Source: a virus. From it: a stretch of 43,656 bases of DNA. Position numbers and translations under genes: made by a program. This document shows, piece after piece, positions 1,739-22,952 of the stretch. The stretch is from positions 179,055 to 222,710 of the IMG/VR virus record IMGVR_UViG_3300010352_001565. One strand, given 5' to 3'. Every line of letters starts with the position of its first letter. The first letter of the stretch is position 1. The notes under the pieces are model-generated. The model was not told the DNA's origin. It made no database searches and was given only the letters and a program-made list of their open reading frames with translations.

Positions 1739-3157
1739 ATGCCTCGGACTAAGCTAACATACGGAATCGAGTTGGAGTGCACTAAGCTCATGCCCAACGC
1801 GGCTGAGATCATTGCACGCCGCGAGTTTGACAACCATTACGACAACTCCATCAAAGGAAACGATGGCGAGGATCTCCCGCGCGGAGAAGGTGGCGGATCT
1901 GAACTCGTCACCAAGCCTCTGATCATTGAAGCTTACTTGCACGATCGCAAAGCCGTGCTGAACGACCGGAACGATACCAAAGCGGTTGTCCGCGACCTGT
2001 GCAGCTGCGCGCAGTCCGTAAACAAATCGTGTGGTCTGCATATCCACATCGGCTGTCCGCTGGAGAGCACTGGGCGTAGCACTCAGATGAGGAGCCGCTG
2101 GAATCCAGAGCAGACGCGGACGTTTCTCGCCATCGCGCTTGCTCTCGAGGATAAGATGTTTGACCTCTGCCCTCCGAGCAGAAGGAACAACAGCTACTGC
2201 AAAACGATTCGCGAGTTATACACCAACGCAGAGCTTGAGGCCTTTCACCCCACGGGAGAAGTTGTCGCCCGTAAGTGGGACAACGCCAAGCGCTACTGCT
2301 GGTTTAACATCGTCGAGACTCTCCGGATTGACAACGTCCCGTCGTCTCCAGGAACCGTCGAGATTCGCATGCTTGGAGCAGTGCGCAGGTTTGAATACAT
2401 TTGGTCCTGGATTAACCTCTGGCTCAAGATCGGAACTTATGTGGCATTTGCTACTCCAGCTTCTGCGATAATGAGCTGCGTACATTCTGGGGCGCTAGAC
2501 GAGGACATTGAGGCAGTGAGGACCGCGAAGAATTCGAAAGTTTCTCCGGCCGCTGAGCGGTCTCCGAGCATTTCGCGAATTGACGACGAGCATCCGAGAA
2601 ACGGCAGGTCTTTGCCTGTGTTCAACCCTACTCACCAAGCGTGGGAAATTCCAGCGACTCCAAGCTGGTCAGAGTTTCCTGGTGGTGCTGAAGACGGCGG
2701 ATACTCGGGAACGCAGATCAGATACTCTGACAGTGCGGAGACCGACAGCCAGCGGCAACAACGAATGGTTCAGGATTTAGTGAACGCATCTCAGCGGTCT
2801 CGCGAGGTGGCCCAAGCGGCTCCAGCTCCTGCCGCAACTCCAGCTCCTGCCGCAACTCCTGCTCCCGCTCCAGAACCCGCACCTTTACCCCCTCCTCCGC
2901 AACGACGACGAGGGCTTAGGCCGATTCAAGAGCGCATTCGCGATGCTGTTCGAGCTGAGCGCGCAAATGCACAGCAGGAGAACGCGCAGCAAGAGGAGAA
3001 CGTTCAATCAACTCCTCCATCCTACCGCGTGGTTGGAACATCCACCGGTCGATTAACTTCTTCCGGATCGAACGTGACTAGCAGACCGCGAGAGGAGAGC
3101 GAGGGCGGAGACCACTTTAGCGTCCTTGACTACGATGGCTTTGGCGAGCACTATTAA
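1739..3157 (+). CDS. amidoligase paralog B with a Pro/Ala-rich low-complexity C-terminal extension
   Basis: Carries YGIELECT, CGLHIHIGC and VEIRMLGAV. In the amidoligase / gamma-glutamyl-cysteine-ligase-2 fold these correspond to the metal-binding Glu pair, the His pair and the ATP-binding Arg. About 150 C-terminal residues are AAPAPAATPAPAATPAPAPEPAPLPPPP-like, encoded by an 18-bp tandem repeat at about 2821-2870. Confidence 0.6.
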   Translation: MPRTKLTYGIELECTKLMPNAAEIIARREFDNHYDNSIKGNDGEDLPRGEGGGSELVTKPLIIEAYLHDRKAVLNDRNDTKAVVRDLCSCAQSVNKSCGLHIHIGCPLESTGRSTQMRSRWNPEQTRTFLAIALALEDKMFDLCPPSRRNNSYCKTIRELYTNAELEAFHPTGEVVARKWDNAKRYCWFNIVETLRIDNVPSSPGTVEIRMLGAVRRFEYIWSWINLWLKIGTYVAFATPASAIMSCVHSGALDEDIEAVRTAKNSKVSPAAERSPSISRIDDEHPRNGRSLPVFNPTHQAWEIPATPSWSEFPGGAEDGGYSGTQIRYSDSAETDSQRQQRMVQDLVNASQRSREVAQAAPAPAATPAPAATPAPAPEPAPLPPPPQRRRGLRPIQERIRDAVRAERANAQQENAQQEENVQSTPPSYRVVGTSTGRLTSSGSNVTSRPREESEGGDHFSVLDYDGFGEHY

Positions 3158-3240: not shown

Positions 3241-4278
3241 ATGTGCGCAATAATTGGTTGGGCCGGAAAGATCCCAAAAGGCCTGCTGACCCGCATGCTG
3301 ATCGGGGCTGAAACCCGAGGCAAGGATTCGACTGGACTCGCTTTTCGAGCAGTTGAAGATGGGAAGACATGCAATCTATGCTATCGCCACATCGTCCCTG
3401 CCCGCACCTTCGTTGACATCCACAAGGACTTCGTGGGAGACGCCCGGCGTTCATTCCGCGGCATTGCTCACACTCGCAATGCATCTCCTGGAATGCCGAT
3501 CGATAACTCGAACGCGCACCCATACGTCTATCCGTGGGAAAACATGGGCAAGTATTACTTTGCGCACAACGGGCGAATCCAAAACTGGAAAGTTATCAAA
3601 GCGGAGCAGATTGAAATCTACTCCAGAGAGCTGAACGAGCTGATCTCAGAATTTGTGGCGCTTACGGCATCTGGCGAGAAGCCAATGACCGCTGAAGAGG
3701 TTAAGGTCGTCCTGACTGCCCTTGCGAAAGCTGAGCGCGAGCCTGTCTCAAAAGAGCAGGATGCTCTGAAAGCACTCGCTGAGGACAAGTTCAACGCCGC
3801 TCAGGGAATCGCCGCCCGTCTTCGCTACGTCGAAAATGCGACAACAGACTCGATGATTCTCGGACCGTGCATCGAGAACCGCGACTTCAGCGAAGTTGAC
3901 GGTTGCATGGCGCTGGTCTGGATGAAAGCAGACAACGTCTATACCTTCAGGAGCGCTAAAGAAGCTGTTGCGGCGACCGTCGTTTGGAAATACAAAAAGC
4001 CAGCGTCCGGAGAACCGGCAGACGACCAGCTTGTCACCATTGTTGCCAGTACGAAAGAGATTATCGAGAAGTCATTCGACAAAATCGCGGACGCTGTTGA
4101 CTCTGACATCGCGTTCATCAACTACGACGAGGGGCGCATTTACCGGCTTATGCCCAACACCATGGTTGATGAAGGGCGCGTTCCTGTCCACCAGGCAATT
4201 GAGGACGAGTTTTCATCATCGGTCGTTGAAACCGAAACCGCTGAGCAGATCAAAATTGAAGACGCGGGAACCAAATGA
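3241..4278 (+). CDS. class-II (Ntn-hydrolase) glutamine amidotransferase-like protein
   Basis: The N-terminus is MCAIIGW, so Cys becomes residue 1 after Met removal, the nucleophile position in GATase type 2. It also has HTRNASPG and YFAHNGRIQNW (an HNG-I-N-like motif). An AAGGA RBS lies 8 nt upstream. Confidence 0.6.
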   Translation: MCAIIGWAGKIPKGLLTRMLIGAETRGKDSTGLAFRAVEDGKTCNLCYRHIVPARTFVDIHKDFVGDARRSFRGIAHTRNASPGMPIDNSNAHPYVYPWENMGKYYFAHNGRIQNWKVIKAEQIEIYSRELNELISEFVALTASGEKPMTAEEVKVVLTALAKAEREPVSKEQDALKALAEDKFNAAQGIAARLRYVENATTDSMILGPCIENRDFSEVDGCMALVWMKADNVYTFRSAKEAVAATVVWKYKKPASGEPADDQLVTIVASTKEIIEKSFDKIADAVDSDIAFINYDEGRIYRLMPNTMVDEGRVPVHQAIEDEFSSSVVETETAEQIKIEDAGTK

Positions 4279-5770: not shown

Positions 5771-7189
5771 TTATTTGAGCTCCTCAGGGACATCTTCACC
5801 CGGATCTTTCTTTTCAGTCCGGCTGTTTTTGCCTTTTCTGCGAGGCTTATTATCCTCTTCAGCGGCATCTGGGTCGTATTCGATCTCGCTGTCGATCGTG
5901 ATCTTGAAAACGGTAGGATCGACCTTGCCTTTAAAGTGGCCGCAAGCTGCTCCGTGACGGTTGATGAAGATGAAGAAACGAAGCACGTTTTGGACATACT
6001 CCTCTTCAGTGGAGCAGAGACCGATCGCCGCATCCACGATACCTGCTTTTTCGAACGCGCCCTGGAAGCTCGTCATATTTGGAACGGCTGCGTCAACCGT
6101 GTCGCGATTGCAGCGGTCGGGCATGATCACGCAGCAGCCAAGCTCCTTACCCATCGCGCGGGCTTCGGTATAAATGTCAGACTGCTGACGATGGTCCTTA
6201 ATGTCTTTGGTGGCGCTTGGCTTGATCGTTTCAGCGTAGTCGATGAATATCGCTTTTGGGTGCAGATTGAACTGTTTGATGCACGTCTTGGCGTGCGCCT
6301 TGATGTTGGCGATTGTCGCCTGTTTTGCAGCGAAGTCCTTGAAGAGAAGGTTTCCGGCTACGAGCGACCCGAACTTCTCGTGGCAAGCTTGCTTGAACTT
6401 TTCAGGATTCTCATACATGTAGTCCATCGTCTTGCCAGACAAATTAGACAGGGCGCGGCAGATGGCCAACTCCTTTGAAATTTCGCAGGTGTAGTAGAGG
6501 ACATCCTCGTGGATTAACGGGCTGATCATGTTCAGCGCCAGATTCAAGCACACCGCCGTTTTGTAGCGTTTAGGAGGAGCGAGTGGAACGATGAGCCACC
6601 CGGGATGCCAGCCATTTTTCCAAATGCCGTCTAGGAGCGGATAACCCGTGCGGATACCAAATCCTTTAGCAGTAATGTTGTCGACCGCATAGTCGGCGTG
6701 GGCATGCAGCACCCATCCAAGATCGTCAAGATTCTGACCGATAGAAAGAGCCTCTTCAAATATCTTAACGATGTTAGTCTCTTTGATCTTGCCCTCTTTT
6801 ATCGAGTCGATCGATTTGCGCACGGCGTTAACCACGGCTCGTTCGCGGCAGAAGTCCACGGTCTTCTGCACCACATACTCCTTATCTCCAGTGTCCATGT
6901 CCCTGAGCCGCGTGATGTAATCTGCGACGCGGTTGCTGGAATCTTCCTCACCAGCTTCAATGTGGCGAAGATACTCGGAGGACATTTGGTTGAGAGTCTC
7001 CCATCCCGGAAACCTCCCGTACTGCTCGTTGTATTCGATGGCTACCTTTGCCACGGCAGTTGCTTGAACACCGGAGAAAAACTTCGGCTCGACAATCTGT
7101 CCATAGCACTGAAAATCCTGCGGGTGCTTGATAAGGCAACTGAGCAGGAGGTCTTGAAATTCTGCTGTAAATCCAAACTGTTCCATCAC
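5771..7189 (-). CDS. DnaB-like replicative helicase (RecA-fold)
   Basis: It has a DnaB-like N-terminal domain, the loop GYPLLDGIWKNGWHPGWLIVPLAPPKRYKT (LD...G...G.L.h.A with a degenerate Walker A KT) and a Walker-B-like AIFIDYAE. Confidence 0.6.
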   Translation of the reverse strand: MMEQFGFTAEFQDLLLSCLIKHPQDFQCYGQIVEPKFFSGVQATAVAKVAIEYNEQYGRFPGWETLNQMSSEYLRHIEAGEEDSSNRVADYITRLRDMDTGDKEYVVQKTVDFCRERAVVNAVRKSIDSIKEGKIKETNIVKIFEEALSIGQNLDDLGWVLHAHADYAVDNITAKGFGIRTGYPLLDGIWKNGWHPGWLIVPLAPPKRYKTAVCLNLALNMISPLIHEDVLYYTCEISKELAICRALSNLSGKTMDYMYENPEKFKQACHEKFGSLVAGNLLFKDFAAKQATIANIKAHAKTCIKQFNLHPKAIFIDYAETIKPSATKDIKDHRQQSDIYTEARAMGKELGCCVIMPDRCNRDTVDAAVPNMTSFQGAFEKAGIVDAAIGLCSTEEEYVQNVLRFFIFINRHGAACGHFKGKVDPTVFKITIDSEIEYDPDAAEEDNKPRRKGKNSRTEKKDPGEDVPEELK

Positions 7190-8211
7190 ATCACTTTCTT
7201 CAAAAAGACTTCGTTGCGGCTGTTGTAGTATTCAAGCGTCCAGTATTGCTGGATGGCGTAGCCAATGCGGCGCCAGAATTCGAATGAATCATCTACAGTT
7301 TCTGTCGCGATCTCAAAATCAGAGGGAGAGAATCCGTGCTGATTAAGAACTGTCTTGACAGCAATCGGCATCATGCGCTCTTTCGTCTTGAAAACATACT
7401 GAGCTCTCCTGTTGCTTCTCTTTAGTTCCTTCAAAGTCTGACAAACGCTGAACCGGTGGCGCTGGACCATCGGAGTCCCAGTAGGCTCATTAAGGTGCGG
7501 GGTAAGAATGGTCTCAACATAGCAGGCGTCGGTGGCAAGCCAGATGGGGCTAAGAGAAAGCTCCTGCATATTGAACAGCATTGGAGCAGGATCTCCAGAC
7601 GACCTTATCTTGTATCCCACGATGAAACTTCCAGCGATGATTTCGCTATTGAGCATCTGTTTCTCGGCGTCGGACGTTTTCTCTTTTCCGAGAAGTGTGT
7701 CAATGGCCTCAAGGTCAAACGTCCCGTACTTCTGGACGCACACAGAGCGGTACAGCTCAAGCCGGTGATTGGCGCGATCTCCGAACAGCATGTTGGCGTA
7801 AAACTTCCTGTCTGGAGAAGCCTCGCGGTAGCCTATCATGTTGGTCAGGATGTATAGGCGAAGAGAGCAACCGGCGTCGCTAGCAGCCTGCTCGACTCGC
7901 TGCTTTGCATCTTTTACCCGAAGTAGAGAGTCACCTTTGGTTTTGTAGACAGTTTCGTAGCAGGATTCGTACAGCATCGCCAGACTGTCGGCCTCTGGGT
8001 CTTTAACTGGGAGATCTCGAAGCCCTTTTGGAACAAAGTTGAATCTCAGTTTGTCTAAAGGAATGCGTCCTTTTCGCCGTCCAAGAGCTTTCTGGCACTC
8101 TTCAGCATGTTCGCACTTTGAGCAAAGTTCGTCTTTTCCGAACTCGAATCCGTAGCAGGGGCGTGGAGTTTGTATGGGGATGCGTTCAAGCATTGCGTTC
8201 TTTGAGAACAT
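7186..8211 (-). CDS. helicase-associated protein with an N-terminal Cys4 zinc ribbon; possible primase
   Basis: It is coupled to the helicase by an ATGA overlap at 7186-7189. The zinc ribbon is CYGFEFGKDELCSKCEHAEEC. I found no clear TOPRIM or AEP motif, so the primase call rests on context only. Confidence 0.35.
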   Translation of the reverse strand: MFSKNAMLERIPIQTPRPCYGFEFGKDELCSKCEHAEECQKALGRRKGRIPLDKLRFNFVPKGLRDLPVKDPEADSLAMLYESCYETVYKTKGDSLLRVKDAKQRVEQAASDAGCSLRLYILTNMIGYREASPDRKFYANMLFGDRANHRLELYRSVCVQKYGTFDLEAIDTLLGKEKTSDAEKQMLNSEIIAGSFIVGYKIRSSGDPAPMLFNMQELSLSPIWLATDACYVETILTPHLNEPTGTPMVQRHRFSVCQTLKELKRSNRRAQYVFKTKERMMPIAVKTVLNQHGFSPSDFEIATETVDDSFEFWRRIGYAIQQYWTLEYYNSRNEVFLKKVM

Positions 8212-11200
8212 GGAAAGAGCCGCTCGAAAGCCAAAGCAGATATACCTTGACCCTCAGGGACAGCAGTTGAGTCTTAAAGATGTCGATAAGAAATGGCGAG
8301 ACACCATCATCTATCACAACGGAACTGAAAATCGTGGCGGAAACATCGTCACCACATTCGACCCAGAAAACCCGCTAGGAACGCGGCTCCTAGAGCCTGG
8401 TCCTGATTCTCCGGTGTGCGCTAAGTGCGCGCTTTACGAGCAAGGAGCTCAGCACCCGTTCATGAAGCCGTTTGGTGCCGAGGACCCACTAGTGACGGTG
8501 GTATTTGACTCGGTGTCTGGAAAGGAAGACTCGCGCGGCGAAATCGGATCTGATGGGCCTCCAATGCTGATTCGGAAGCTGGTTCAGGAAATGGGGTTTG
8601 ACGCATCTCGAATACGATGGGCGCCGGCGACTCTTTGCTCCGCCAGGACTGGAAAGCTTCCAAACTACTCGACTAAGGGAAACCACTGCAAAATCCATCT
8701 TATTCAAGACATCGAGCAGCACCCACCGAAGATGATCATGACCGTTGGAAGCGCCGCTCTCGGACTTCTGTCGTTCAAATCGAATGCTCAAGACTGGGGT
8801 GGCCGCGTGCTGACGTATCGCGGATGGCCGGATGACTGGCTGACAGATCCTGATTACATGCTTGACCGACCTGATCCGCGCGATCCAAAGACATCTCTCA
8901 CGCGCGGACATCCCATCATGGGAAAAGCTCCAGAAGGCTTCCGAATTCCCATCGTTCCGATTCAGAGCCCGCGCATGGTTTACATGACGCAAAACCAGAA
9001 TGTCATCAAGCGCTGGAAGTCTCACGTCAAGACCGCGTTCGAGATGGCACTTCAGGGAGTTCCTCCTAAGGTTTACGACCGCGCCTATTGGAACATGAGC
9101 GTCGATCCAGACGAGATTGCTGAAAATCTCCTCTACTTGATCAACCACCCAGGAACGCTCACCAGCTACGACACTGAAACAAACGGCGTCAGACCTTGGG
9201 CAGTGGACGCTGCGATCGTGTTCATGATGTTTCGATGGACTGATGAAGATGGCAACCCGAAATCGATTGGCTTCCCGTGGAACTACCCGAACAGCCCGCT
9301 GATCAACTATCTCCCAGAGCTCGCGCCGCTCGTCCTTGAAGCTCTGTATGCCTCAGACCTCATTGGACACAACATCACGTTCGACGTCTTGTTTACCTAC
9401 GCAAACGTGCCTGGGGCCAACCTGGTTAAGCTAGCGAATGCTGCAAAATGGGATACCTGGCATATGGCATACGTCATGCGCCAGCAGCGCGGAACGTTGG
9501 GCTTGGAAATGATCGCTTACGAGTGGGTGCCTGACCTTGCGGGCTACGAAGAGGACATGACCCTCTTGATTGAGCTGCTCAGAGACCTGTTACATCCGGG
9601 AGCCGGAAAGGGAGGCCACTACGCCAACTGCCCGCGCGATAAGTGGGACACCCACCTCAAGCCCTACGTCATGGGTGACGTCGAGGTGGCTTACTGCGCA
9701 AAACCGAAGATTGAGGCCAAGCTTGGAACTGCCAGAACTTACCGAATGCCGCTGGCAGACCCAACCCGACGCGGTCGATTTCGCTTGTTCGAGCCGCCAC
9801 CCCGAAGCTGGGTTTATCCGAACGTTGTATCTCCAGCCGCGCGGATGCTCATGAATATGATGGGTCGCGGCATGCACGTGGACATCGAGGAGCTAGCGCG
9901 CCAGGAAGACATTTTTCCGAAGAAGATTAGAGAAGCTCGCGACAAACTTCGAGCGGTCGACCCGAAGATTATCGAGTGGTGCCAGCAGATGGAGGAGACC
10001 GAGCCTGGATGGGAGCTTGACCTTGAAAAGAAAGAGCACCTCAAAACAATCCTGTTTGACAGCAGACTTCTAAATCTTCCAGTCAATCGCATCACTGAGA
10101 GCGGGCAGAAGCTCTTTGGAGATACCCCAGAAGACTTGCAAGGGCTTCCGCGCGAGAAGCTGGTCGAATACGCGGCGCTGGACAAGTTCACGCTGAACAT
10201 GCTGTCAGTCGAGCATCCTCAGGTTCGGCCTCTCCAGGAATACAAGAAAATATTCAAGGCGTATACCACCTACATTCGCCCACTTCGCAACGCTTTCTCA
10301 GACAAAAAGCATGGTGGCGTTGATAAGAAACGCCGCATGGAGATACAGCACCTTATGCGAGACGGCTGCGTGCACGCCAGCTTCAAGCTGACTGGAACGC
10401 GCGGAGGACGCTTGAGCTGCTCTGATCCGAACCTTCAGCAGCTACCTCGCGACGGTTTAATTAAACGCATTTACACCAGCCGCTTTGGAAAAAGAGGGTG
10501 CGTCTACCAAGGCGACCTTTCTCAGATCGAATTGCGCCTTCTGGCTGCAGCTTGCGGAGACTCCTCAATGGTGGATGCTTATCAGCGCGGCATCGACCTG
10601 CACGCCCTGACTCACAGCAAGATTTACAGCAAGGCATACGAGGAATGCACCAACGAGTTCATGGAATGGCTGCAGGCGCACGGCAGAGACTCTGAAGCAA
10701 AGAAAGTCAAGCTCGAGCGCAAAGCCGCAAAGGTCGTTAATTTCTTGACAGGCTACGGTGGAGGAGCTTTCGGTCTACAAACCGCTCTGGCAAACGACCA
10801 GATCTACAAGACGCTTGAAGAGTGCGAAGCTCTGCTTGAGGCGTTTTTCGATGGCTATCCAGCAATGCGCCGCTACCTGTCTTACTACAAGGACTTCATC
10901 CAGCAAAATGGCGTGGCCGTGTCGATTCTCGGACGCGTTCGCATCTTTGAAGAGGTGTTTGGCGATGATCCTAAGGCGAAAAACAAAGCGCTGCGCGCTG
11001 GTTGCAACCACCTGATTCAGTCCACTGCTTCTGACTTGATGCTTATCTGCTTGACGGCTATCGAGAACATCTTGACGAACGAGGGCCTTGAATCTCAGAT
11101 GGTCTGCACGGTGCACGACTCTCTTGTGGTTGACGCTGTGCGCGAAGAGCTGCCTGTTGTCCACGACATTGTCTACGGGGTGCTCAACAACATCCCTGAC

Positions 11201-11365
11201 GTGCTCAAGCTCACATTTGGTGACAACTATGACACGTCATGGTTGTCATTTGTTCCTCTGGCTGGAGATTGCGAAGTTGGTCTCAACTACCTCGATGCGA
11301 AGAAAGTTCCTCAGCACGGCGAGATTGACTGGGACAAGCTTTTGGCACCAGCAGCCGCTCACTAA
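8174..11365 (+). CDS. family A DNA polymerase with an N-terminal family-4 UDG-like domain and a 3'-5' exonuclease domain
   Basis: The exonuclease motif is SYDTETNG. The polymerase motifs are RLSCSDPNLQQLPR, KVVNFLTGYGGGAFGL (motif B) and VHDSLVVD (motif C). The N-terminal ~250 aa resemble UDG family 4 (GEIGSDGPPMLIRKLVQEMGF...WAPATLC, HPP), but the GEAPG-type motif A is degenerate (DSVSGKED). Confidence 0.85.
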   Translation: MGMRSSIAFFENMERAARKPKQIYLDPQGQQLSLKDVDKKWRDTIIYHNGTENRGGNIVTTFDPENPLGTRLLEPGPDSPVCAKCALYEQGAQHPFMKPFGAEDPLVTVVFDSVSGKEDSRGEIGSDGPPMLIRKLVQEMGFDASRIRWAPATLCSARTGKLPNYSTKGNHCKIHLIQDIEQHPPKMIMTVGSAALGLLSFKSNAQDWGGRVLTYRGWPDDWLTDPDYMLDRPDPRDPKTSLTRGHPIMGKAPEGFRIPIVPIQSPRMVYMTQNQNVIKRWKSHVKTAFEMALQGVPPKVYDRAYWNMSVDPDEIAENLLYLINHPGTLTSYDTETNGVRPWAVDAAIVFMMFRWTDEDGNPKSIGFPWNYPNSPLINYLPELAPLVLEALYASDLIGHNITFDVLFTYANVPGANLVKLANAAKWDTWHMAYVMRQQRGTLGLEMIAYEWVPDLAGYEEDMTLLIELLRDLLHPGAGKGGHYANCPRDKWDTHLKPYVMGDVEVAYCAKPKIEAKLGTARTYRMPLADPTRRGRFRLFEPPPRSWVYPNVVSPAARMLMNMMGRGMHVDIEELARQEDIFPKKIREARDKLRAVDPKIIEWCQQMEETEPGWELDLEKKEHLKTILFDSRLLNLPVNRITESGQKLFGDTPEDLQGLPREKLVEYAALDKFTLNMLSVEHPQVRPLQEYKKIFKAYTTYIRPLRNAFSDKKHGGVDKKRRMEIQHLMRDGCVHASFKLTGTRGGRLSCSDPNLQQLPRDGLIKRIYTSRFGKRGCVYQGDLSQIELRLLAAACGDSSMVDAYQRGIDLHALTHSKIYSKAYEECTNEFMEWLQAHGRDSEAKKVKLERKAAKVVNFLTGYGGGAFGLQTALANDQIYKTLEECEALLEAFFDGYPAMRRYLSYYKDFIQQNGVAVSILGRVRIFEEVFGDDPKAKNKALRAGCNHLIQSTASDLMLICLTAIENILTNEGLESQMVCTVHDSLVVDAVREELPVVHDIVYGVLNNIPDVLKLTFGDNYDTSWLSFVPLAGDCEVGLNYLDAKKVPQHGEIDWDKLLAPAAAH

Positions 11366-11646: not shown

Positions 11647-12708
11647 ATGCCTAACAACGGACCCATACCTTCATACGCCAGTGAGAGACTCATTGGACTC
11701 GAGCTCGAGTACGACGCAAAAACCACCAAGCTCAGCTTGCCAACGACGACACCTTCTGGCTGGTCGCGGCAGTCTGACGGCAGCCTGCAGAATGGCGTTG
11801 AGATGGTGCTCAATCCTCCTCTGACGCTGACAGATGCAACTCCAGTGGTCAAAGAGTTCGCTGACGCTTTCAACCGAGCCCGGACAAACACCTTCAGCAG
11901 CGGCGGCTTCCACGTTCATGTTCAGGTTGCGGATTACACCGAGCATGACGCCGGAAATCTCGCTCGCCTCTACCACCATTTTCAGACGCAGATTAACCGG
12001 TTGCTTGGAAAATCTCGCCACAACAACCACTACTGCCCTCCGTTTACGCACTCCGTGACAGATGCCGATCTTTCGTCGAGATTTAATCTCGGCTCGCTTG
12101 CCAGCACGAGAGCCAGCGCCAAGTCTGCCCGCAAATACCAAGTGGTGAACTTCGCAATGATGCGGTGCACTCGCCACAGCGACCGCACGGTGGAATTTCG
12201 CCAAGGAAGCACCACAAAGCGGTTTGAGTGCATCATTGGCTGGGCGGCATTCTGCGTTGCCATGGTTGAAATCGCCAAGAACGACGCCATGACCAGCGCT
12301 TACATCGGTCAGCAAGCGTCGTGGGAAAACTTCGTGCAGATGCTTCGCGACCACGAATCCATGGTTGGTGCCAGCCACATTGCTGACTGGGTGGTTTGGA
12401 GACGCGAATATCTCGAAGAGACACCGAGCGACGAGCTCATCTCAAAAGCAGTTGCCGCTATGGGACGCCGTCCTCGCGGAATCTTTCACATCTCGCGCGC
12501 TCTCGACATCAACTTGCCGCTGAGCGAGCGGACTCTAAACGCCGCCGTTTCTCGCGGTCTGATTGCTAAGATCGGATCGAAATACCAAGCAAAGTTTGTC
12601 TCATTCGCGGGGTCAGATCTTGAGCAGCTTCAACAAGCCGCGGAAGCCAGGGAGGCAGCTATGCCCGCTGACCGCTCAGGCGAGGTTCTACCTGGAGAGG
12701 AACAATAA
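11647..12708 (+). CDS. amidoligase paralog C
   Basis: Carries IGLELEYD, GGFHVHVQV and VEFRQGSTT, the same three-motif architecture as ORFs 359-1354 and 1739-3157. Confidence 0.6.
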   Translation: MPNNGPIPSYASERLIGLELEYDAKTTKLSLPTTTPSGWSRQSDGSLQNGVEMVLNPPLTLTDATPVVKEFADAFNRARTNTFSSGGFHVHVQVADYTEHDAGNLARLYHHFQTQINRLLGKSRHNNHYCPPFTHSVTDADLSSRFNLGSLASTRASAKSARKYQVVNFAMMRCTRHSDRTVEFRQGSTTKRFECIIGWAAFCVAMVEIAKNDAMTSAYIGQQASWENFVQMLRDHESMVGASHIADWVVWRREYLEETPSDELISKAVAAMGRRPRGIFHISRALDINLPLSERTLNAAVSRGLIAKIGSKYQAKFVSFAGSDLEQLQQAAEAREAAMPADRSGEVLPGEEQ

Positions 12709-13955: not shown

Positions 13956-14694
13956 GCCTACCCAGCAACTTGACTTGGGGCTTCTACCTTCGGAACCGCA
14001 GCCCGGATCTGAAGGTGTTGTCGTCCCCACAGAGCTGATTGCTCCGGAGAACGCTGCGGACACCAACGCTCAGTTTCCTGACCACGTCGTGGATCAGCTT
14101 CTGACGCCGTGCACCGCCATCATCAGAGACACTCTCACAGAGCAAAACGGGGCTCCTAACCTCGAAAACCCACAGGAACCCCCAGAACATCCCCAGGCTG
14201 ACAAGCCTCTCCAGGTGATAGAGCAGGTGGTTGGAGCCATAAAAGATGGCCGAGACCTGTCTGCCATGAAACCGGACGTGCTCCGGTTGATCTCTAACCA
14301 GGAAGACAGAGCTCAGTTGATCTCTAACCTCCTGATGACCCACGACTACACCCGGGTTGCGAAGTACGCCAAGGCGCGAGAAAAGCTCGAAAACACCATC
14401 CTCGAAGCAATCGACCGCGGGCGTCTTACACCCACTCAGACCCTTGCCTTCTTGAAGCTCATTTCTGAGGAAACTGAAGTCATTTCTGGGCGCATTCGTG
14501 GCGGCGCCACGTCAGTCAAGGACCTGATGGCTCTGATAAATCGAGCAGATTACCAGATGCAGATGTCTGAAGGTGACATTCATAAGAAATTCACAGGAAC
14601 GTCGCCGCAAGGCAGAGAGATCATCAGGCGCTTAATTGGAAAGCTGTGCAAAGCGACAGCCTCTGACGCCAGACGCGACGTGGTTAGCGACTAA
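13954..14694 (+). CDS. putative terminase small subunit (assigned by position only)
   Basis: It lies immediately upstream of the large terminase and is coupled to it by a TAATG overlap. I recognise no motif. Confidence 0.3.
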   Translation: MPTQQLDLGLLPSEPQPGSEGVVVPTELIAPENAADTNAQFPDHVVDQLLTPCTAIIRDTLTEQNGAPNLENPQEPPEHPQADKPLQVIEQVVGAIKDGRDLSAMKPDVLRLISNQEDRAQLISNLLMTHDYTRVAKYAKAREKLENTILEAIDRGRLTPTQTLAFLKLISEETEVISGRIRGGATSVKDLMALINRADYQMQMSEGDIHKKFTGTSPQGREIIRRLIGKLCKATASDARRDVVSD

Positions 14695-16727
14695 TGAGTC
14701 CCACTGAGATTGAAAATGTCCTACTGCGGATCCTTGAAGGCGACAACGCTGACGAGCTAATCCGCAGCTTGTCTGAAAAAGAGCAGGGTCTCTTCTACAA
14801 CATTGTCACCGAGATTCGAAACGGTGCAGCACCAGAGCTTCTCGACGACCTGTGGAAAATCGATTACACCCGTCGCCCGCCGTCGATTGAAGAGTTTATC
14901 ACTGATCCGTACTGGCTTGGAAACACCATGGCCGCTACGGAAGAAAATCCCGGTATCTTTCCTGCTTGGAAAGAAGTGTTGCTTCAAGACTTTGATCTCG
15001 AGTCGCGCATCCACAACCTTGTCATTACAGGTTCACTCGGAACTGGAAAATCGTGGGTGAGCAGCGGCATCTTTCTTTACAGGCTGACACTTGCCACGCT
15101 TCTGAGAAACCCGCAGAACTTTCTAGGCTTGTCAGCAGGTTCAACTATCGTCTACATCGTCTTATCATTGAGCAAGGCGGTCGTTCAAGAAACGGTCTTT
15201 GGCGATGTCCAGAACTTCATGGGACACAGCGCCTACTTTCTCGAAGACTGCCATTTCAATCCAGAGCTGAAGTACAGCAATTTCAGAATTCCGCTAGGAA
15301 AAGGGATCATCCTTACGGCCGGTTCAAAAGGACAGCATATCATCGGTCGTAACACGATGGGTGTCTTCCTTGACGAAGGTAACTGGCGCCTTGAAGCAAA
15401 CCCGGACATGAAGGCGTACAAGCTGTACGACGAAGTTCGGACTCGTATTAAAAACCGCTTCCAGAAGGTCGCTGGGTTTCTACCCGCTATATCGATACTG
15501 TCCTCGTCTGCCCGCGATGAGTCGAGCTTTACTGAAAAGGTCATCTCAGACATCAACGCCATCAAGGACCCCAACGCCGAGAAAGTCTACCGCTTCGCAG
15601 TCTATAAGGTCAAACGCCACCTGCTCAAGCTTAAAAATCGCTGGTTCAAGGTTGCGTACGGTATCAAAAATGTTGATCCCGTTGTGCTTAGCGGTTTTTA
15701 CCTCGAAAACGGTACCCCGATAACCAACGATCCTGAGAATCCTGTTGAGGCGCCGCCTGATGGCTGTCAGACTGAGCTCGTTCCTGAGGACTATCTTGAC
15801 GCTTTCAAGCGCAACGCCAAATCAGGTCTGCAGAACGTCTGTGGTATCAGCACTGGAGGAAGCCACCTGCTTCTCTCGTCAACCATCGACGTGCTGAAAT
15901 GTGTTGAGCTCGGAGAGCGCTCAGGCGTGGTTAACCCGGTCCGCGGCAGAATGGCGCTGATTCCTATCTCCGACGAAGACGACCGTGAGATCTGGGACTA
16001 TCTTGACCACAAGTCATTCCTGACTTTGCGCCATAGCCAGGTCATCCCTATCAGGCATCCTTCAGCTACTCGGTTCGCTCACTTGGACTTGGCTACCGCT
16101 ACCAAAGCAGGTCTGGCAATTTGCCATCTTGTGGGCATGCAGAAAGTCGAGGGCCTTATCAAAAACGGCCAGATTTACGACGAGTACCGCCTGATCGTCG
16201 AATTCGACTTCATCCTCACAATCACTGCCGGTCGAACAAAGCCAATCAGCCTTGAAAAGATCCAGAAGTTCTTTTTCTGGCTCCGCGGCGAGTGCGGATA
16301 CCACTTCGGCAAGATAACGGCTGACACCTACCAGTCAGCCATGCCTCTTCAGATGATGTCTTCTAGAGGGTTCGAAACTGACGTGCTGTCCATTGACCGA
16401 AAGAAAGCTCCGTACTACGGGCTGCGGACTGGCATCGAGGAACTTCGCTTGCGCCTGTACCACCAGGGCGAAATGCTCACCGAGTTCGAGAAGCTGGTTG
16501 ACGGCCCAGAAAAAGTTGACCATCCTCCTGAAGGTTCGAAGGATACGACTGACGCGGTCTGCGGCGCATACACCAACGCCATCAACTCCGAGAACATTTC
16601 TGACTCCCAGTCTGGCACAGATCCATCGCTGCACGCTTCTTCGTCAGCCGATAAGCACGAAGAAGTTTCTCCCATATCCATTCCAATTCCGCGTCAGCCA
16701 CGCAAGTCCCAAGTGTTCCAGGCTTGA
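14694..16727 (+). CDS. terL: terminase large subunit (ATPase plus nuclease)
   Basis: Walker A is LVITGSLGTGKSW and Walker B is VFLDEGNW. The C-terminal region is RNaseH-like (HLDLATATKAG, D-rich). Its 677-aa length is typical. Confidence 0.85.
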   Translation: MSPTEIENVLLRILEGDNADELIRSLSEKEQGLFYNIVTEIRNGAAPELLDDLWKIDYTRRPPSIEEFITDPYWLGNTMAATEENPGIFPAWKEVLLQDFDLESRIHNLVITGSLGTGKSWVSSGIFLYRLTLATLLRNPQNFLGLSAGSTIVYIVLSLSKAVVQETVFGDVQNFMGHSAYFLEDCHFNPELKYSNFRIPLGKGIILTAGSKGQHIIGRNTMGVFLDEGNWRLEANPDMKAYKLYDEVRTRIKNRFQKVAGFLPAISILSSSARDESSFTEKVISDINAIKDPNAEKVYRFAVYKVKRHLLKLKNRWFKVAYGIKNVDPVVLSGFYLENGTPITNDPENPVEAPPDGCQTELVPEDYLDAFKRNAKSGLQNVCGISTGGSHLLLSSTIDVLKCVELGERSGVVNPVRGRMALIPISDEDDREIWDYLDHKSFLTLRHSQVIPIRHPSATRFAHLDLATATKAGLAICHLVGMQKVEGLIKNGQIYDEYRLIVEFDFILTITAGRTKPISLEKIQKFFFWLRGECGYHFGKITADTYQSAMPLQMMSSRGFETDVLSIDRKKAPYYGLRTGIEELRLRLYHQGEMLTEFEKLVDGPEKVDHPPEGSKDTTDAVCGAYTNAINSENISDSQSGTDPSLHASSSADKHEEVSPISIPIPRQPRKSQVFQA

Positions 16728-17538: not shown

Positions 17539-17975
17539 GCTACATCCTAGCCAGCAGATACGCAGGAATAACGACCATTCCGGTAAGCCTTCCTCAGCTT
17601 GAGCTGAGACCCGGAGACTCTGCTGTTGTTTCCATGCTTAAGATCGAGCAGAACCAGAAGATGATGCTGAGGTGGCTGAGTTTGAACCTTATCAAGCTTT
17701 GCGGGGTTAACGCTACAAACCCAACTCTTATCAACCCAGGTCTCGGGATAGTCTACGCTGGAGTCTACTCTTCTGGGTACAACTCGACGTATGGTCCGTG
17801 TGGAACTCCAATCGCTCTGGTTTCAGTAAAGTCCACAGGCACCTCAATGATTAACCCGTACCACCCTAGAAACTTTGAGAGTCCTGACACCTACTCAATT
17901 ATCGTGTCGAACAACACGCAGAGCACCACAGTTAACGTCGGAGTTTCAGGATCTATTCTGTACTACTTTTTATGA
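17535..17975 (+). CDS. hypothetical structural protein, paralog 2
   Basis: It is N-terminally similar to ORF 17056-17538. Confidence 0.5.
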   Translation: MSYILASRYAGITTIPVSLPQLELRPGDSAVVSMLKIEQNQKMMLRWLSLNLIKLCGVNATNPTLINPGLGIVYAGVYSSGYNSTYGPCGTPIALVSVKSTGTSMINPYHPRNFESPDTYSIIVSNNTQSTTVNVGVSGSILYYFL

Positions 17976-20900
17976 TACAGTCGGCAAGAGTCATAGCTCA
18001 AGCGGCGAGCATCCTGGCGCAGCAGTCGTCTGAGCCTGGTGTTGTTGCTGTTATCAACGCAGAAAATACCTCTCCGATCGTAATCACGACCGCTGAACCG
18101 ACTGGGCTTGCAACCGGGGACAAGGTCTCAGTTTCTGGAGTGCTTGGAAATCTTGCGGCAAACGTGACAGACTGCACCATCACAGTTCTGAGCTCGACAC
18201 GGTTCAGGCTTAACGGCACCACTGCGAGTGGCGCGTACACTTCTGGAGGGTGGGTTAGCGGCCACACTCTGTGTCCTGCGGCAACAACTGGGGACTTTAA
18301 TCCAACCACTTTTTCAAGGCGAGACAACGAGCTTCAGTACCGCGACCTCGTAGTTGCAGCCCACCTTATGGAGGTGTCAATGCGAGCGTCGACAGTGTGG
18401 TCGTTCGTCGCTCCGCGCATCCTCATACCGTCAGTTCCGTCTCCGAACCTCGACTATAAAACGCAAGATCTTGACGCGTCTCAAGCTGGAAAAGTTCTTC
18501 ACGTTCTGAACAGCTCGTTTCCAAGTGCCGCCGTAGCGACCGACAAGCAGCTTTATTACCGCGATACCATTCTCCTTGAAGCGCTTGCTCGAGCAGGTAA
18601 GGTGTTTGAGCCAGATTTTACGCTTCTTCCTGGAGGACAGCAGATCCCATCTGCAACAATATCCGATGCGTGGTCGCTCGCAGAAGGAGCACCTTCCAAT
18701 AGGAGCGTTTCAGGAGCGCACCAGCTCAACCGCGACTTGTTCAAAGTCCCTGACCAGAATCTTGCTGACCGTGACAACCAGATTGCGTCTGTTGCATCGC
18801 GTCTTATCGCCGTGCTGACAAGCCCGCTTGACTACGCAAACAGGCTATATGTCAAAATAGGAACGCGGGAACCTACTACGTTCGCCATTGTGGAGAATGA
18901 AAGCCGCGATGACACCAGAACGTGGGCTGGAATGCCGCAGTTATCAGCTGGAAGAAATCGACTGATCTACTCAAAGTCTCAGAAGACAATGACGTGGGTC
19001 CCTGAGGATGGGTCGGCGCCCATTGTTGCGCAGGCCGTCCCTCCGACGATGGACGCTAATGGATCCACAACTGCGATGACAGTCCAAAGCTCTGGAGGAT
19101 CCATGGACTTGGTAGCGAGCATCCCGGCGTCCCCGGATGCAGTAACCAGGCTAGATCGCGCGAAGCTTCTCAAATTTAGCGGGGCGTTGGAAATCGACGG
19201 AGTCTGCTACACTGGCGACGACTTTGGAGGTCCTCTTCTAGATGGAAGCAAGTGCCTCTACACCCCGTACAACATCAGCACCGGAGTCGGTTGGGGAGAG
19301 CTTCCAGCAGGAACTTATCGCGTTTCTATTCTTGTGCGACCAGGAAGCATCCTTGAATTTCCAGGAGCAAATCTGACTTCAGGCGCCTCGTACACATTTA
19401 CGCCTCTTATTTCGAGTAGCTCTTCTCGATGGAAGCTTTCCTTTGTCTACTCAAACTCTACCGCAACCTCATGCGAAGCTGGGACGTCTGGGGCTCCACA
19501 GATTCTATCCATTGTTGCTGGAAGTGGAACATCAAACCCTGTTTATTTCGATGGATCGCCGTTGCGCATCAAGCCTCTTAACGGAACTCTTAACATCAGC
19601 AAGGTGATCCTTACAGAAGAAAATTACACCGTAGATCCTCAGTACTCGATTCATGCTGTGCTTACGGATGACATGGGGTCGAACATGGGGTCGTCGCCCG
19701 TGGACATTACCATGTACGGGCGCCGCCAGCGGTACGACGTAGTAACGTTTGATTTTACAACAACGATCGCGTCAAGACACCCTATTTTGTGGCTTATCAC
19801 AGGAGTTCAACCATGCCCACTCGTGCTTAGCGCCATTCACATTCAGGCGGCAAACGCAGTGACTGGAACTCCCGAGACTGGAGGTCACGCCGCTTGGAAG
19901 TACGACTCCCTGATGAAAGCGCTCTCCGACGTCAAGGCATCGTACAGCCAGAAGATAAATTCTCCGATCGGTCAAGAGCACCAGCTTCCAGGGACTGACT
20001 ATTTCACAAACAGGTTTACACTGTCTTTCAACAAGTCGATCATACTGGCGGGATCTAACATCTCGTCGACCTCAGAGCCAGGAGAGCCAAATCATGGACC
20101 GCTCGGGGCGTATGGAGGAAAGTCGCTTTGGTGGGCGTGGACTGCTACGCACGACTGCACCGTCACGATCAACTACGACGGCAGTCTGATGGACGACGAA
20201 GGAGTGTGCTGGGCGTCTGTCGCGATATACACGGGAGAGTCGCTGCAGTCACTGCAAAGGGTGACAACGTCTTCTCCAGGACAAAATGCAATTTCATTCC
20301 AGGCAGTGAAAGGAACAGCGTACTCTATTGCAGTTGATGGAATTAACGGAGCATCCGGGTCGATCGTACTTGCCGTATCGCTAAGCACCGCCGCAAATAC
20401 CCTTCAGGAAAATGCGGTCCCGGTTTCAAACTTCTCCGTCCGTCAGCTTGTCAGCGAGACTCAGCTCTCGGTGCCGAACTACGCTTGGTACTTGTTCACC
20501 TCTCCGGTTAGCGGCTATGTGAAAGTGTACGTTGATGGAAGCGAAAATCAAGACAGCAGAAATCTTAAAGTCACTCAGAACGGAACAGACGTAGCCGCCG
20601 TTGTAACCACGTCAAGATCTATAGTGTTTAACGCTGAGTCTGGAGTTGACTACCTCATAAAGATAGGCGGCGATGGAAAGACCTGCCTTAGCATCTCCCC
20701 TTATTACTCGAACCCAGATGGAACGTGGGATAGGAACAGCATCGAGCGCTGGATGTCTGACATTGAGACGCTGCACGCGCGCATCAAGACAGCGTTCAGG
20801 CAGTCGCGCCCAGGCGACATCGGAAAACCGTGCCTGCTTCCCCGCGGTCTGTCGGTCACAGCTAACGGGTCTGTTCACGGAGAATACGGCTCTACTTGGA

Positions 20901-21028
20901 GCACTCCGACGATTGTGGCATTGCAGCCGTGGATGATTGCGATTGGAGCCTACGTGGCAGACCGCGAGTTCTGGCCAGCAGAAAGCACGATCGAGGTTTC
21001 GTCGATTACACAGGCTGGAATGCAGTAG
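17972..21028 (+). CDS. large S/T/G-rich virion protein, probably a tail fibre or receptor-binding protein
   Basis: It is 1018 aa, beta-rich and of low-charge composition. It is the last gene of a tightly coupled operon 16743-21028. I recognise no enzymatic motif. Confidence 0.4.
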   Translation: MIQSARVIAQAASILAQQSSEPGVVAVINAENTSPIVITTAEPTGLATGDKVSVSGVLGNLAANVTDCTITVLSSTRFRLNGTTASGAYTSGGWVSGHTLCPAATTGDFNPTTFSRRDNELQYRDLVVAAHLMEVSMRASTVWSFVAPRILIPSVPSPNLDYKTQDLDASQAGKVLHVLNSSFPSAAVATDKQLYYRDTILLEALARAGKVFEPDFTLLPGGQQIPSATISDAWSLAEGAPSNRSVSGAHQLNRDLFKVPDQNLADRDNQIASVASRLIAVLTSPLDYANRLYVKIGTREPTTFAIVENESRDDTRTWAGMPQLSAGRNRLIYSKSQKTMTWVPEDGSAPIVAQAVPPTMDANGSTTAMTVQSSGGSMDLVASIPASPDAVTRLDRAKLLKFSGALEIDGVCYTGDDFGGPLLDGSKCLYTPYNISTGVGWGELPAGTYRVSILVRPGSILEFPGANLTSGASYTFTPLISSSSSRWKLSFVYSNSTATSCEAGTSGAPQILSIVAGSGTSNPVYFDGSPLRIKPLNGTLNISKVILTEENYTVDPQYSIHAVLTDDMGSNMGSSPVDITMYGRRQRYDVVTFDFTTTIASRHPILWLITGVQPCPLVLSAIHIQAANAVTGTPETGGHAAWKYDSLMKALSDVKASYSQKINSPIGQEHQLPGTDYFTNRFTLSFNKSIILAGSNISSTSEPGEPNHGPLGAYGGKSLWWAWTATHDCTVTINYDGSLMDDEGVCWASVAIYTGESLQSLQRVTTSSPGQNAISFQAVKGTAYSIAVDGINGASGSIVLAVSLSTAANTLQENAVPVSNFSVRQLVSETQLSVPNYAWYLFTSPVSGYVKVYVDGSENQDSRNLKVTQNGTDVAAVVTTSRSIVFNAESGVDYLIKIGGDGKTCLSISPYYSNPDGTWDRNSIERWMSDIETLHARIKTAFRQSRPGDIGKPCLLPRGLSVTANGSVHGEYGSTWSTPTIVALQPWMIAIGAYVADREFWPAESTIEVSSITQAGMQ

Positions 21029-21389: not shown

Positions 21390-22952
21390 TCACTTCTTTC
21401 TCCACACAAACGCTTCAGAATACCACGGTGGGAAAAACTGAGGATACCGCTCCCAGATCATCGTGAAGTCCGAATCAAGAATGTAGGTGACACCTTTGTC
21501 GGTGTCACTGCGCACAATTCGACCAGAGGCCTGGATGACCGTCATGACCGTCTGCATGACATACCAATCCGGGTCTTTTTCTTTTTTAGCGAGCACCTGA
21601 GCATCCCCAAGACTTGGCCACGGGATCTTCGCGATAATCTGCCAGGTGGCAAGATCGCTTGCGAAGTCAAATCCTTCTGTCATCGACGGGCTAATGATCA
21701 CTGTAGGAAATGGCGAATTTGCATGGTCGGCAAATGCGCGGTCGCGCTCATCAGCTGTGCGAGGAAACAGAAGGCGGTGAGGATATATTGGCGCAAAGTT
21801 TGCATAGATTAGCTCCCCAAGCGCGTAGCTGTTGCAGTGGATGATCCCTTTCTCGTCTTTGTGAAGATCCAGAATCTTTCGTGTGAGCCGCATGAATTCT
21901 GGGGTCGTCGCTTCGATGTTGCGCTTGCTCATAGATCCAGCAAACAGCATGACCACAGGGCGGTTCTCAACTGGGAACGTGGATCTTAGCGAGCACCACC
22001 CAACGTCAGCTGCTTTAAGACCGAGGTTGCGGCAAAACACCGACTTACTTCCAGGATACGCCGACATGTAGACTCGAATGTCGGCCATGTCTCGCACAAT
22101 ATCCACAAACGGAGCGGCGTCAAGAGGTCTTGCGATCGAGTCACGGTATCCTTCCTTGTCTTTCTCCTGCCAGTAGACCCAGTTTTTTGAGTCCTCCTTG
22201 ATGAGCTTCAAAGCGTGGAGCACCTTGTTGACGTGTTGCTCAAGTGCGTAGGCTTCGCGAATGGCTTGGTCGTCGTTACCCTCAGCCAGCGCGATAAGCA
22301 CCTCAGAGCGTTCCTTAATGGCAGAGACATAAGTTCCTTCGACCCACTCGACAAATTGCTCTAGAGTGTTCAGAACCGGAACCTCTTGGATGTCTGGGGC
22401 CCACTTCGGAAGGTCGCGTTCAGACACAGTCATGTCCATGTGGCGAATGAGCTGGCGCTCAAGGCTATGAGCCTCGTCGCACACCAAGATGCGACGCTTC
22501 GAGAACTTTCCGACGTGGATGCGCTCGGTTAGAAAATAGGGATAGTTCGTAACACCGGCTCTCGAGCTGGCGAACATGTTGCGCTGTCGACGGTAAGTGC
22601 AGTTGTCTCCGAGCTTGCACTTCTTGGAAGACTGACCGACGGAGCACTTTTTAAAACCGCTGGAGCACTCGTACTCGTTCGAAGACTTCAGCGACACGAT
22701 CTCCGGAAAGTCATCCGCGTACTGGTCTTGGAGCATCTTCTGGGTAGTAAGAATGTAGCCTCCAGGCTGAGCGCTCGACCGATTAGCTGCTCCCCAGTTG
22801 CACAGGGTCACGCCAACGGCTGACTTTCCAGACCCAGTTGGAGCAGCGAGAACAATGTCTTCACAGCCCATTCCAATGGCCTTATTGATGAAGTTGACAG
22901 CCGTGGTTTGCTTTTCGCGCGGTGTCAGTTGAGATGGAAAATATTCAAGCAC
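21390..22952 (-). CDS. DinG/Rad3(XPD)-like superfamily-2 helicase with an FeS-cluster insert
   Basis: Walker A is APTGSGKS and the DEAH box is VCDEAHSL. Four Cys residues lie between motifs I and II (CSSGFKKCSVGQSSKKCKLGDNC). Confidence 0.8.
   Translation of the reverse strand: MLEYFPSQLTPREKQTTAVNFINKAIGMGCEDIVLAAPTGSGKSAVGVTLCNWGAANRSSAQPGGYILTTQKMLQDQYADDFPEIVSLKSSNEYECSSGFKKCSVGQSSKKCKLGDNCTYRRQRNMFASSRAGVTNYPYFLTERIHVGKFSKRRILVCDEAHSLERQLIRHMDMTVSERDLPKWAPDIQEVPVLNTLEQFVEWVEGTYVSAIKERSEVLIALAEGNDDQAIREAYALEQHVNKVLHALKLIKEDSKNWVYWQEKDKEGYRDSIARPLDAAPFVDIVRDMADIRVYMSAYPGSKSVFCRNLGLKAADVGWCSLRSTFPVENRPVVMLFAGSMSKRNIEATTPEFMRLTRKILDLHKDEKGIIHCNSYALGELIYANFAPIYPHRLLFPRTADERDRAFADHANSPFPTVIISPSMTEGFDFASDLATWQIIAKIPWPSLGDAQVLAKKEKDPDWYVMQTVMTVIQASGRIVRSDTDKGVTYILDSDFTMIWERYPQFFPPWYSEAFVWRKK

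Follow-up and report, generated by a model that had tools for sequence, protein, structure and literature searches.

The stretch of viral DNA analysed here (the window; 43,656 nucleotides, positions 179,055 to 222,710 of IMG/VR record IMGVR_UViG_3300010352_001565) carries the gene for a family A DNA polymerase (PolA) with an N-terminal domain derived from family 4 uracil-DNA glycosylases (UDG4). The gene is one uninterrupted open reading frame (ORF) of 3192 nt, encoding 1063 amino acids (aa), in which the UDG4-fold domain, a 3'-5' exonuclease and the polymerase follow one another in a single polypeptide. The same architecture is found in all full-length homologues. The enzyme and its close relatives are henceforth referred to as the clade, and fusions of this type as UDG-PolAs. 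The features of the gene are given below.

8174 to 11365, plus strand: UDG-PolA replicative DNA polymerase, whole gene
8222 to 8398, plus strand: clade-specific extension at the N-terminus (aa 17-75), composed of strands and a single helix, confidently modelled, absent from canonical UDG4
8399 to 9058, plus strand: UDG family-4-like alpha/beta fold (aa 76-295)
8417 to 8428, plus strand: C82-x2-C85, first two putative 4Fe-4S ligands, invariant in the clade
8504 to 8530, plus strand: motif A equivalent F111-D-S-V-S-G-K-E-D119 (canonical G-E-A-P-G-x-x-E-D), from column counts
8621 to 8632, plus strand: A150-P151-A-T153, equivalent to the end of the canonical T-N-A-V strand, with the uracil-contacting Asn replaced by Pro
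8636 to 8638, plus strand: C155, putative 4Fe-4S ligand
8687 to 8689, plus strand: C172, putative 4Fe-4S ligand
8786 to 8941, plus strand: clade-specific insert (aa 205-256), with invariant W208, G210, R216-G-W-P-D220, W222 and G250
8957 to 8986, plus strand: probable motif B equivalent P262-I-Q-S265-P266-R-M-V-Y-M271 (canonical P-x-x-H-P-[AS]-[YF]-x-L-R), gapless match with Pro at -3 and +1
9161 to 9853, plus strand: 3'-5' exonuclease domain (aa about 330-560), Exo I D333-T-E335, invariant N400..D404 and Y498..D502
9854 to 11362, plus strand: family A polymerase domain, motif A D781-LSQIELR, motif B R849..K853..F857..Y861-G, motif C V980-H-D982

Homology of the N-terminal domain (N-domain) to UDG4 is established: the resemblance is far beyond chance, though only profile and structure comparisons reveal it. 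When the polymerase was scanned as a single sequence, Pfam and PHROGs returned no UDG match, and neither did a phmmer search of the N-domain sequence (aa 1-320) against the PDB. Pfam reported DNA_pol_A at aa 665-1009 (E = 1e-57) and PHROGs reported ‘DNA polymerase’ from aa 166 on and nothing else; the annotation is corrected here, as such scans detect the polymerase but miss the UDG domain. A word-indexed search retrieved three relatives and no more. N-domain homologues were collected by an exhaustive HMMER scan over 1.84 billion representatives, which yielded 36 close homologues at E < 1e-30, nearly all of them polymerases of 1000-1900 aa, together with ~100 weaker matches. Many of the weaker matches carry canonical GEAPGxxED and HP[AS]xxxR motifs, and these are either stand-alone proteins of ~200 aa or the N-termini of polymerases of ~860-900 aa. 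A profile built from the N-domains of 27 clade members (A1) matched the solved family 4 enzymes TM0511 (1L9G/1VK2, E = 5e-8), S. tokodaii (4ZBX, 7e-7) and T. thermophilus (1UI0, 1.6e-6), and matched UdgX at about 3e-3. When A1 was aligned by hhalign with a canonical comparison set of 28 UDG4 domains bearing GEAPG/HPx motifs, a probability of 99.9% and E = 1.7e-36 were obtained over aa 74-306.

An AF2 model of aa 1-330 (predicted local distance difference test score (pLDDT) 92.2, predicted template modelling score (pTM) 0.84) has the alpha/beta fold of the UDG superfamily with its four-stranded parallel sheet. Foldseek searches with this model placed UdgX, 1UI0 and 4ZBX at the top (E about 6e-9, target template modelling score 0.67-0.76) and also matched the phiLo UDG-PolA (9QHS); 178 of 191 UDG4 residues superpose on the N-domain fold. 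On the profile, hhalign and Foldseek matches together, the modelled UDG fold is essentially complete. An earlier note, made from the sequence alone, had proposed a UDG-family-4-like domain at the N-terminus of this polymerase, and the single ORF, the agreement of the three kinds of search and the predicted structure bear this out. The interval it gave, 8380-8930, covers most of the fold and ends before the last core strand, the C-terminal helix and the motif B position. The full-length AF2 model of the polymerase reached a pLDDT of 88.4 and a pTM of 0.86, and on the strength of this pTM the UDG, exonuclease and polymerase domains are predicted to have a defined mutual arrangement.

Family 4 enzymes are recognised by motif A, GE(A/G)PG, by the Asn of T-N-A-V, by motif B, HPS(S/A)(L/V)(L/V)R, and by four cysteines with a 4Fe-4S cluster (PMC10359453, PMC4787834). 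In UdgX and family 4, uracil is hydrogen-bonded by N91 and H178, forming uracilate, and R184 aids substrate binding (PMC10359453). The catalytic residues of phiLo PolA are E53, P55 and H178 (bioRxiv 10.1101/2025.03.26.645540). In the window protein F111-D-S-V-S115 aligns with G-E-A-P-G and G-K-E118-D119 with x-x-E-D, so that of the GE(A/G)PG motif and its surroundings the acidic residue and the downstream E-D alone remain. The T-N-A-V Asn is absent as well, P151 standing in its place. The counts in the canonical and clade alignment columns are as follows.

Position 111: canonical G in 28; clade V, T, F, M, L or Y; window F
Position 112: canonical E in 27; clade D in 22, E in 17; window D
Position 113: canonical A in 25; clade S, G or A; window S
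Position 114: canonical P in 28; clade V in 27, I in 6, P in 5; window V
Position 115: canonical G in 27; clade S in 25, T in 8; window S
Positions 118-119: canonical E-D; retained in the clade; window E-D
Position 125 (Phe of PFVG): canonical F in 27; clade G in 19, A in 12; window G
Position 151 (Asn of TNAV): canonical N in 28 of 28; clade P in 23, S in 5, T in 3, A in 2; window P
Position 157 (second P of CRPP): canonical P in 28; clade N, A or V; window A

L/I124 was considered as a replacement of the stacking Phe and was dropped, as the gapless alignment places G125 there. The alignment to UDG4 and UdgX with inspection of the catalytic residues, which the earlier note had suggested, made the homology clear and showed the pocket residues replaced. 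Its identification of DSVSGKED as the motif A equivalent is confirmed, and the degeneracy that it described extends to catalytic and uracil-recognition replacements that are consistent over the whole clade. The block G-x-GPP-x-L-x-R-x-L and W..A..C, which it had likened to UDG4 motifs, corresponds to the helix after motif A and to the strand bearing TNAV..C in canonical enzymes. The later HPP (aa 183-185, nt 8720-8728), which it had counted with them, is not motif B; in the alignments it falls in the loop that leads into strand beta3 (‘..kPk-vivaLG’).

The motif B equivalent was located from the model. S265 is preceded by the hydrophobic core strand 258-263 (IPIVPI) and opens helix 266-271; it probably occupies the position of the motif B His, and both the His and the Arg of the motif would then be lost. 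Q264 had been taken as the His replacement, and this was revised to S265 after anchoring on the Pro residues at -3 and +1. At position 265 the clade has Ser (11), Ala (7), Thr (5), Asn (2), Gln (1) and His (1), and at position 271 the motif B Arg has given way to Ala, Gly, Ser or Met (M271 in the window). Two observations weigh against a wholly dismantled site: in the hhalign alignment the canonical H-P-A falls on the near-invariant H246-P247-I of the insert, and residue 112 is acidic (D/E) in 39/39 clade sequences with a residue at that column. A rearranged active site composed of D/E112 and H246-P247-x-[FY] is therefore conceivable. S265 is preferred over H246 because the segment ahead of H246 is polar and not a core strand, and because the hhalign solution requires three separate gaps. 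The G-H-P-x-[FY]-G element itself (8906-8923, aa 245-250, GHPIMG) mimics the canonical motif B H-P-A-[YF], the S265 site lying 19 residues further on, and could be a relocated catalytic His or the remnant of a local duplication.

With motif B placed by this structure-based assignment and not by hhalign, all residue classes that define uracil recognition and excision are replaced, consistently across the clade. Binding of uracil by the N-domain is unlikely, to judge from the alignment, because the hydrogen-bonding and stacking residues (TNAV Asn, motif B His, PFVG Phe) are all replaced. The earlier description of a probably inactive uracil-binding domain is therefore kept for the loss of activity on uracil and not for the binding.

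The putative Fe-S ligands, unlike the pocket residues, are retained. C82, C85, C155 and C172 are each present in 27/27 clade members, and the canonical domains have Cys at the C82, C85 and C172 columns in 28/28 and at the C155 column in 27/28. The spacing, C-x2-C-x69-C-x16-C, resembles that of family 4 UDGs, in which conserved Cys hold a 4Fe-4S cluster (PMC4787834). The N-domain is probably Fe-S-stabilised.

The clade-specific insert has no counterpart in canonical UDG4, the canonical domains being gapped there in the hhalign alignment. H246 and P247 are near-invariant (26/27 each), and K202 is also among the invariant or near-invariant residues. Shorter clade members are without the hairpin at about aa 230-243 and keep WPDDW and GHPxFG. 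Regional conservation was determined as mean identity to the window protein over 22 full-length homologues.

UDG core, aa 76-204: mean identity 46%, invariant columns 8.5%
Clade-specific insert, aa 205-256: mean identity 59%, invariant columns 17%, the best conserved N-domain segment
Last strand and C-terminal helix, aa 257-295: mean identity 45%, invariant columns 2.6%
Exonuclease: mean identity 57%, invariant columns 14%
Polymerase: mean identity 59%, invariant columns 9%

The UDG region overall has a mean identity of 48% across the clade. Conservation is lowest in the N-terminal extension (aa 17-75), with a mean identity of 32%, and the hhalign match does not begin until aa 74. Over 27 sequences, which share 39-56% identity with the window domain, 21 columns of the N-domain are invariant. 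The N-domain is under purifying selection, the new insert included, and it appears to be repurposed rather than decaying, because the insert is as conserved as the catalytic domains.

Relatives of the N-domain are encoded on 23 IMG/VR viral contigs of up to 238 kb, with the UDG-like domain retained in all 23, and cluster mates at 90% identity or more lie on contigs of 222 kb and 232 kb. No close relative of the polymerase was found in the INPHARED phage collection, where the best polymerase matches are the SPO1-like Bacillus phages SP-10, Nachito, CP-51 and SPO1 at about 25% identity. The gene belongs to an uncultured, metagenome-only phage lineage, probably one of jumbo phages. In BLAST searches with the exonuclease and polymerase part, clade members scored at least 379 bits and the next sequence was a 901-aa metagenomic UDG-PolA with GESPG at 249 bits; CP-51 scored 207, SP-10 205, many canonical-motif UDG-PolAs 50-130 and N4 58-59 bits. 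This sharp gap, from at least 379 to 249 bits and lower, suggests that the clade is a well-separated subfamily, closest by bit score to the SPO1-like enzymes. Canonical motifs persist in most of the outgroups nearest by polymerase, so that the clade's loss of its pocket would be derived and apparently independent of the loss in N4-like enzymes.

UDG-PolA fusions, some with an inactivated UDG domain, have already been described (PMC10201439; bioRxiv 10.1101/2025.03.26.645540). Czernecki et al. 2023 named SPO1, SP-10 and SP-15 as further UDG-PolAs, found the UDG domain in a fixed place between exonuclease and polymerase in all models, and suggested a processivity role for inactive UDG domains such as the N4-like one (PMC10201439). 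Missoury et al. 2025 solved the YerA41 and phiLo enzymes (SP15-like; cryo-EM), in which the UDG domain excises deoxyuridine (dU) on the 5' template strand about 5 nt before the active site, PolX and ligase completing the repair (bioRxiv 10.1101/2025.03.26.645540). An Fe-S cluster, or a clade like the present one, is mentioned in neither paper (PMC10201439; bioRxiv 10.1101/2025.03.26.645540).

The N4-like UDG-PolA (cluster #17) is, like the clade, a phage family A replicase with an N-terminal UDG4-derived domain whose catalytic residues are not conserved. Its polymerase similarity is very low, however, at 59 bits against about 205 for the SPO1-like enzymes. The N4 domain is missing one helix and a beta-hairpin and its N-terminus is without C-x2-C, whereas the clade has a near-complete fold with four Cys and has added the conserved ~50-aa insert and the ~60-aa N-terminal extension. 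The clade thus neither clusters with the N4 polymerase nor has the deleted helix and beta-hairpin that characterise the N4-like group.

The SPO1-like enzymes (SPO1, SP-10, CP-51 and related Bacillus phages) are the nearest cultured polymerase relatives, at about 25-27% identity and about 205 bits. They share the order UDG-like, exonuclease, polymerase, and the N-domain of CP-51 is detectably similar (E = 3e-4). They differ in being ~900 aa long without insert or N-terminal extension, in their Bacillus hosts and in DNA containing 5-hydroxymethyluracil (hmU) or derivatives, and the BLAST scores given above set the clade apart from them. According to recent papers, the UDG catalytic residues of SPO1-like enzymes are conserved. 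The UDG translation of the CP-51 PolA (L005:3513-6290; QENPY...HPN) does not show canonical motifs A and B. That of the SP-10 PolA (L006:1159-3843; TDTAS...GPD) is without C-x2-C from the annotated start and does not show the canonical motifs.

The SP15-like UDG-PolAs (YerA41, phiLo, SP-15; PDB 9QLH, 9QHS) keep motifs A and B, excise template dU, and have a C-terminal domain of about 80 aa plus Inserts 1 and 2. In the clade motif A is lost and motif B probably so, and the profile match to 9QHS is limited to the polymerase core. Compared with family 4 UDG and UdgX (1UI0, 1L9G, 4ZBX, 6AIL), the clade has GE(A/G)PG, the TNAV Asn, the PFVG Phe and CRPP replaced, and probably HPS..R; unlike these enzymes, its domain is fused to a polymerase and carries the extra insert and the N-terminal extension. 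As in the clade, the UDG fold of the poxvirus enzyme (vaccinia D4, mpox E4) contributes to the architecture of a viral replicase, and the enzyme can fill this role in replication without glycosylase activity. Unlike the clade domain, it is family 1-like, acts in trans with a family B polymerase and is still catalytically active. It sits on the template ahead of the polymerase (bioRxiv 10.1101/2025.03.26.645540).

The reading that appears rather probable from these sequence comparisons is that the N-domain has ceased to excise uracil and has become a non-catalytic component of the replicase, probably stabilised by Fe-S. In this model it would be a structural or DNA-handling module, with guiding or holding of the single-stranded template, a contribution to processivity and docking of replisome partners as candidate roles. 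Such a role would parallel the inactive UDG domain of N4-like enzymes and the poxvirus UDG as processivity subunit. Several genes of the window bear on the alternatives, and its annotated neighbours are listed here, with the strand where it was recorded.

359 to 1354: Amidoligase_2 with N-terminal WGR domain
1739 to 3157: Amidoligase_2
3241 to 4278: class II glutamine amidotransferase (GATase)-like protein
5771 to 7189, minus strand: DnaB
11647 to 12708: Amidoligase_2, directly downstream of the polymerase
21390 to 22952, minus strand: XPD/Rad3-like helicase
29701 to 31668: NAD-dependent ligase
32164 to 32607, minus strand: HNH endonuclease
36149 to 37747: GT2-like glycosyltransferase
38006 to 39262: GT9-like glycosyltransferase
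41246 to 42643: RecA

Pfam and PHROGs scans for base-modification genes took in about 45 ORFs, most of them without any match, from a window that makes up about a fifth of a genome of ~220 kb or more. The scanned ORFs showed no gene for a thymidylate-synthase-like protein, dUTPase, dCTP deaminase, 5-HMUDK or aGPT-Pplase, nor for a free-standing UDG, PolX or apurinic/apyrimidinic (AP) endonuclease. At the locus of a clade relative the order DnaB (minus), ~265-aa ORF (minus), PolA (plus) is conserved, with an NAD ligase nearby and no amidoligase beside the polymerase. The earlier note had tied the amidoligases and glycosyltransferases to non-canonical bases. These genes do lie nearby; a link of the degenerate UDG domain to base modification is not supported, given the absence of hmU-pathway genes from the scans and of an adjacent amidoligase in the relative.

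It is unlikely that the N-domain is still a DNA glycosylase with a new specificity, which would run ahead of the fork and remove unmodified thymine, 5-hmU, a lesion or some other base that is not uracil, by means of D/E112 and a relocated H246 in a wider pocket. The UDG superfamily families 2, 3 and 6 work with different motifs. The invariably acidic residue at the motif A Glu position and the near-invariant H246-P247, matched by hhalign to the canonical H-P-A-[YF], would suit such an enzyme, and the Phe to Gly/Ala and Asn to Pro replacements would widen the pocket. The window has a gene for an NAD-dependent DNA ligase, as does the neighbourhood of the relative's polymerase, and SP15-like UDG-PolAs are active on template dU (bioRxiv 10.1101/2025.03.26.645540). 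Against this, strand 258-263 and helix 266-271 suit motif B better and place Ser there, all three uracil-type recognition residues are gone together, and neither an AP endonuclease nor PolX was found in the window.

A non-excising sensor, which would read ahead by binding a flipped-out non-canonical or unmodified template base and modulate the polymerase through stalling or switching to the exonuclease, is likewise doubtful. Parallels are the uracil read-ahead of archaeal family B polymerases and the tight binding of uracil by UdgX. Loss of the catalytic residues while the fold and Fe-S ligands stay, and the strong conservation of the insert, are consistent with such a sensor, and the three amidoligases, the GATase and the two glycosyltransferases could in principle form a DNA-modification pathway. 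In phiLo the UDG domain is placed on the 5' strand of the template, some 5 nt in front of the active site (bioRxiv 10.1101/2025.03.26.645540). However, scans of the 43.6-kb window showed no hmU-pathway genes and nothing there points to modified DNA; the relative's polymerase is without linked amidoligases, and the insert, Trp-rich and acidic (WPDDW), looks suited to contact with a protein rather than to holding a base.

A bolder form of these two proposals is that the Fe-S UDG fold has been rebuilt around the new insert (W208..R216-GWPDDW222..GH246P) into a different activity, which would be either to read ahead as a sensor or, as a glycosylase, to remove a template pyrimidine that is non-canonical or unmodified, in a jumbo phage with modified DNA. 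This is quite unlikely; if true, the rebuilt fold would couple base identity to replication in a manner unlike the N4-, SPO1- or SP15-like enzymes. That the N-domain is a functionless evolutionary relic carried by fusion to an essential enzyme, as the loss of catalytic motifs and its 48% identity against 57-59% for exonuclease and polymerase might suggest, is highly improbable in view of the 21 invariant columns, the four retained Cys, the insert conserved like the catalytic domains, and the presence of the domain in 23/23 IMG/VR relatives and every full-length homologue.

UDG-PolAs are a recently recognised phage coupling of replication to base surveillance, with three subfamilies described, one inactive and two reported active. 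The clade would be a fourth subfamily, in which the uracil pocket has been lost a second time, apparently independently. The concept itself is published; what is new here is a distinct jumbo-phage subfamily in which the UDG4 fold is intact with its Fe-S cysteines, the uracil pocket is dismantled and a novel insert of high conservation is present. Because the whole fold and the Fe-S ligands are kept and an insert gained, unlike in N4-like enzymes, the clade would offer a natural separation-of-function case, in which the UDG fold, and possibly its Fe-S cluster, can be viewed in a family A replicase apart from uracil excision. Short of the discovery of a new activity, the practical consequences are modest.

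Three metagenome contigs of up to 82.8 kb, from ENA, JGI and Logan, encode the identical polymerase protein. A GGAG lies 5 nt upstream of the ATG at 8174, and M13 (nt 8210) is an alternative start that would give 1051 aa. The start is ambiguous, as aa 1-17 have low pLDDT and are unconserved despite the GGAG near ATG 8174; a cluster mate at 90% identity or more is 1051 aa long, a length consistent with a start at M13. The divergent upstream ORF (7186-8211, minus strand) has 341 aa in the mechanical list and 263 aa as called on the contigs, and with the latter call its apparent overlap with the polymerase gene disappears.

Two candidate variants of the architecture were rejected. The split homologue P0001 (375 aa) is not a free-standing UDG domain but a frameshifted call that the polymerase ORF overlaps, and the 1300-1900-aa homologues owe their length not to extra domains but to inteins and LAGLIDADG endonucleases that interrupt the polymerase domain. 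Most clade homologues (e.g. P0004, P0005, P0019, P0024, P0030) have one or two inteins in the polymerase domain, some with LAGLIDADG; the window gene is intein-free.

Window proteins or their cluster mates at 90% identity or more, as well as clade relatives, lie on contigs of 200-240 kb, and the source is probably a jumbo phage. The replication module is flanked by the three Amidoligase_2 genes and the class II GATase-like gene, whose products may act on a DNA base, a protein or a metabolite. Further downstream than the polymerase, a 677-aa ORF (14694-16727) with a precomputed MJ0330_N match and a 1018-aa ORF (17972-21028) with a weak E1_FCCH match near the Pfam threshold are both present on the ENA contig L001, which encodes the identical protein. 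The HNH gene at 32164-32607 is found in the window and on the JGI and Logan contigs (L009/L010) and is missing from the otherwise collinear ENA contig L008, which looks like a presence/absence polymorphism of a mobile homing endonuclease. A PTH2-type peptidyl-tRNA hydrolase (27521-27907, Pfam E = 1e-23), an unusual auxiliary gene for a phage, is also encoded in the window.

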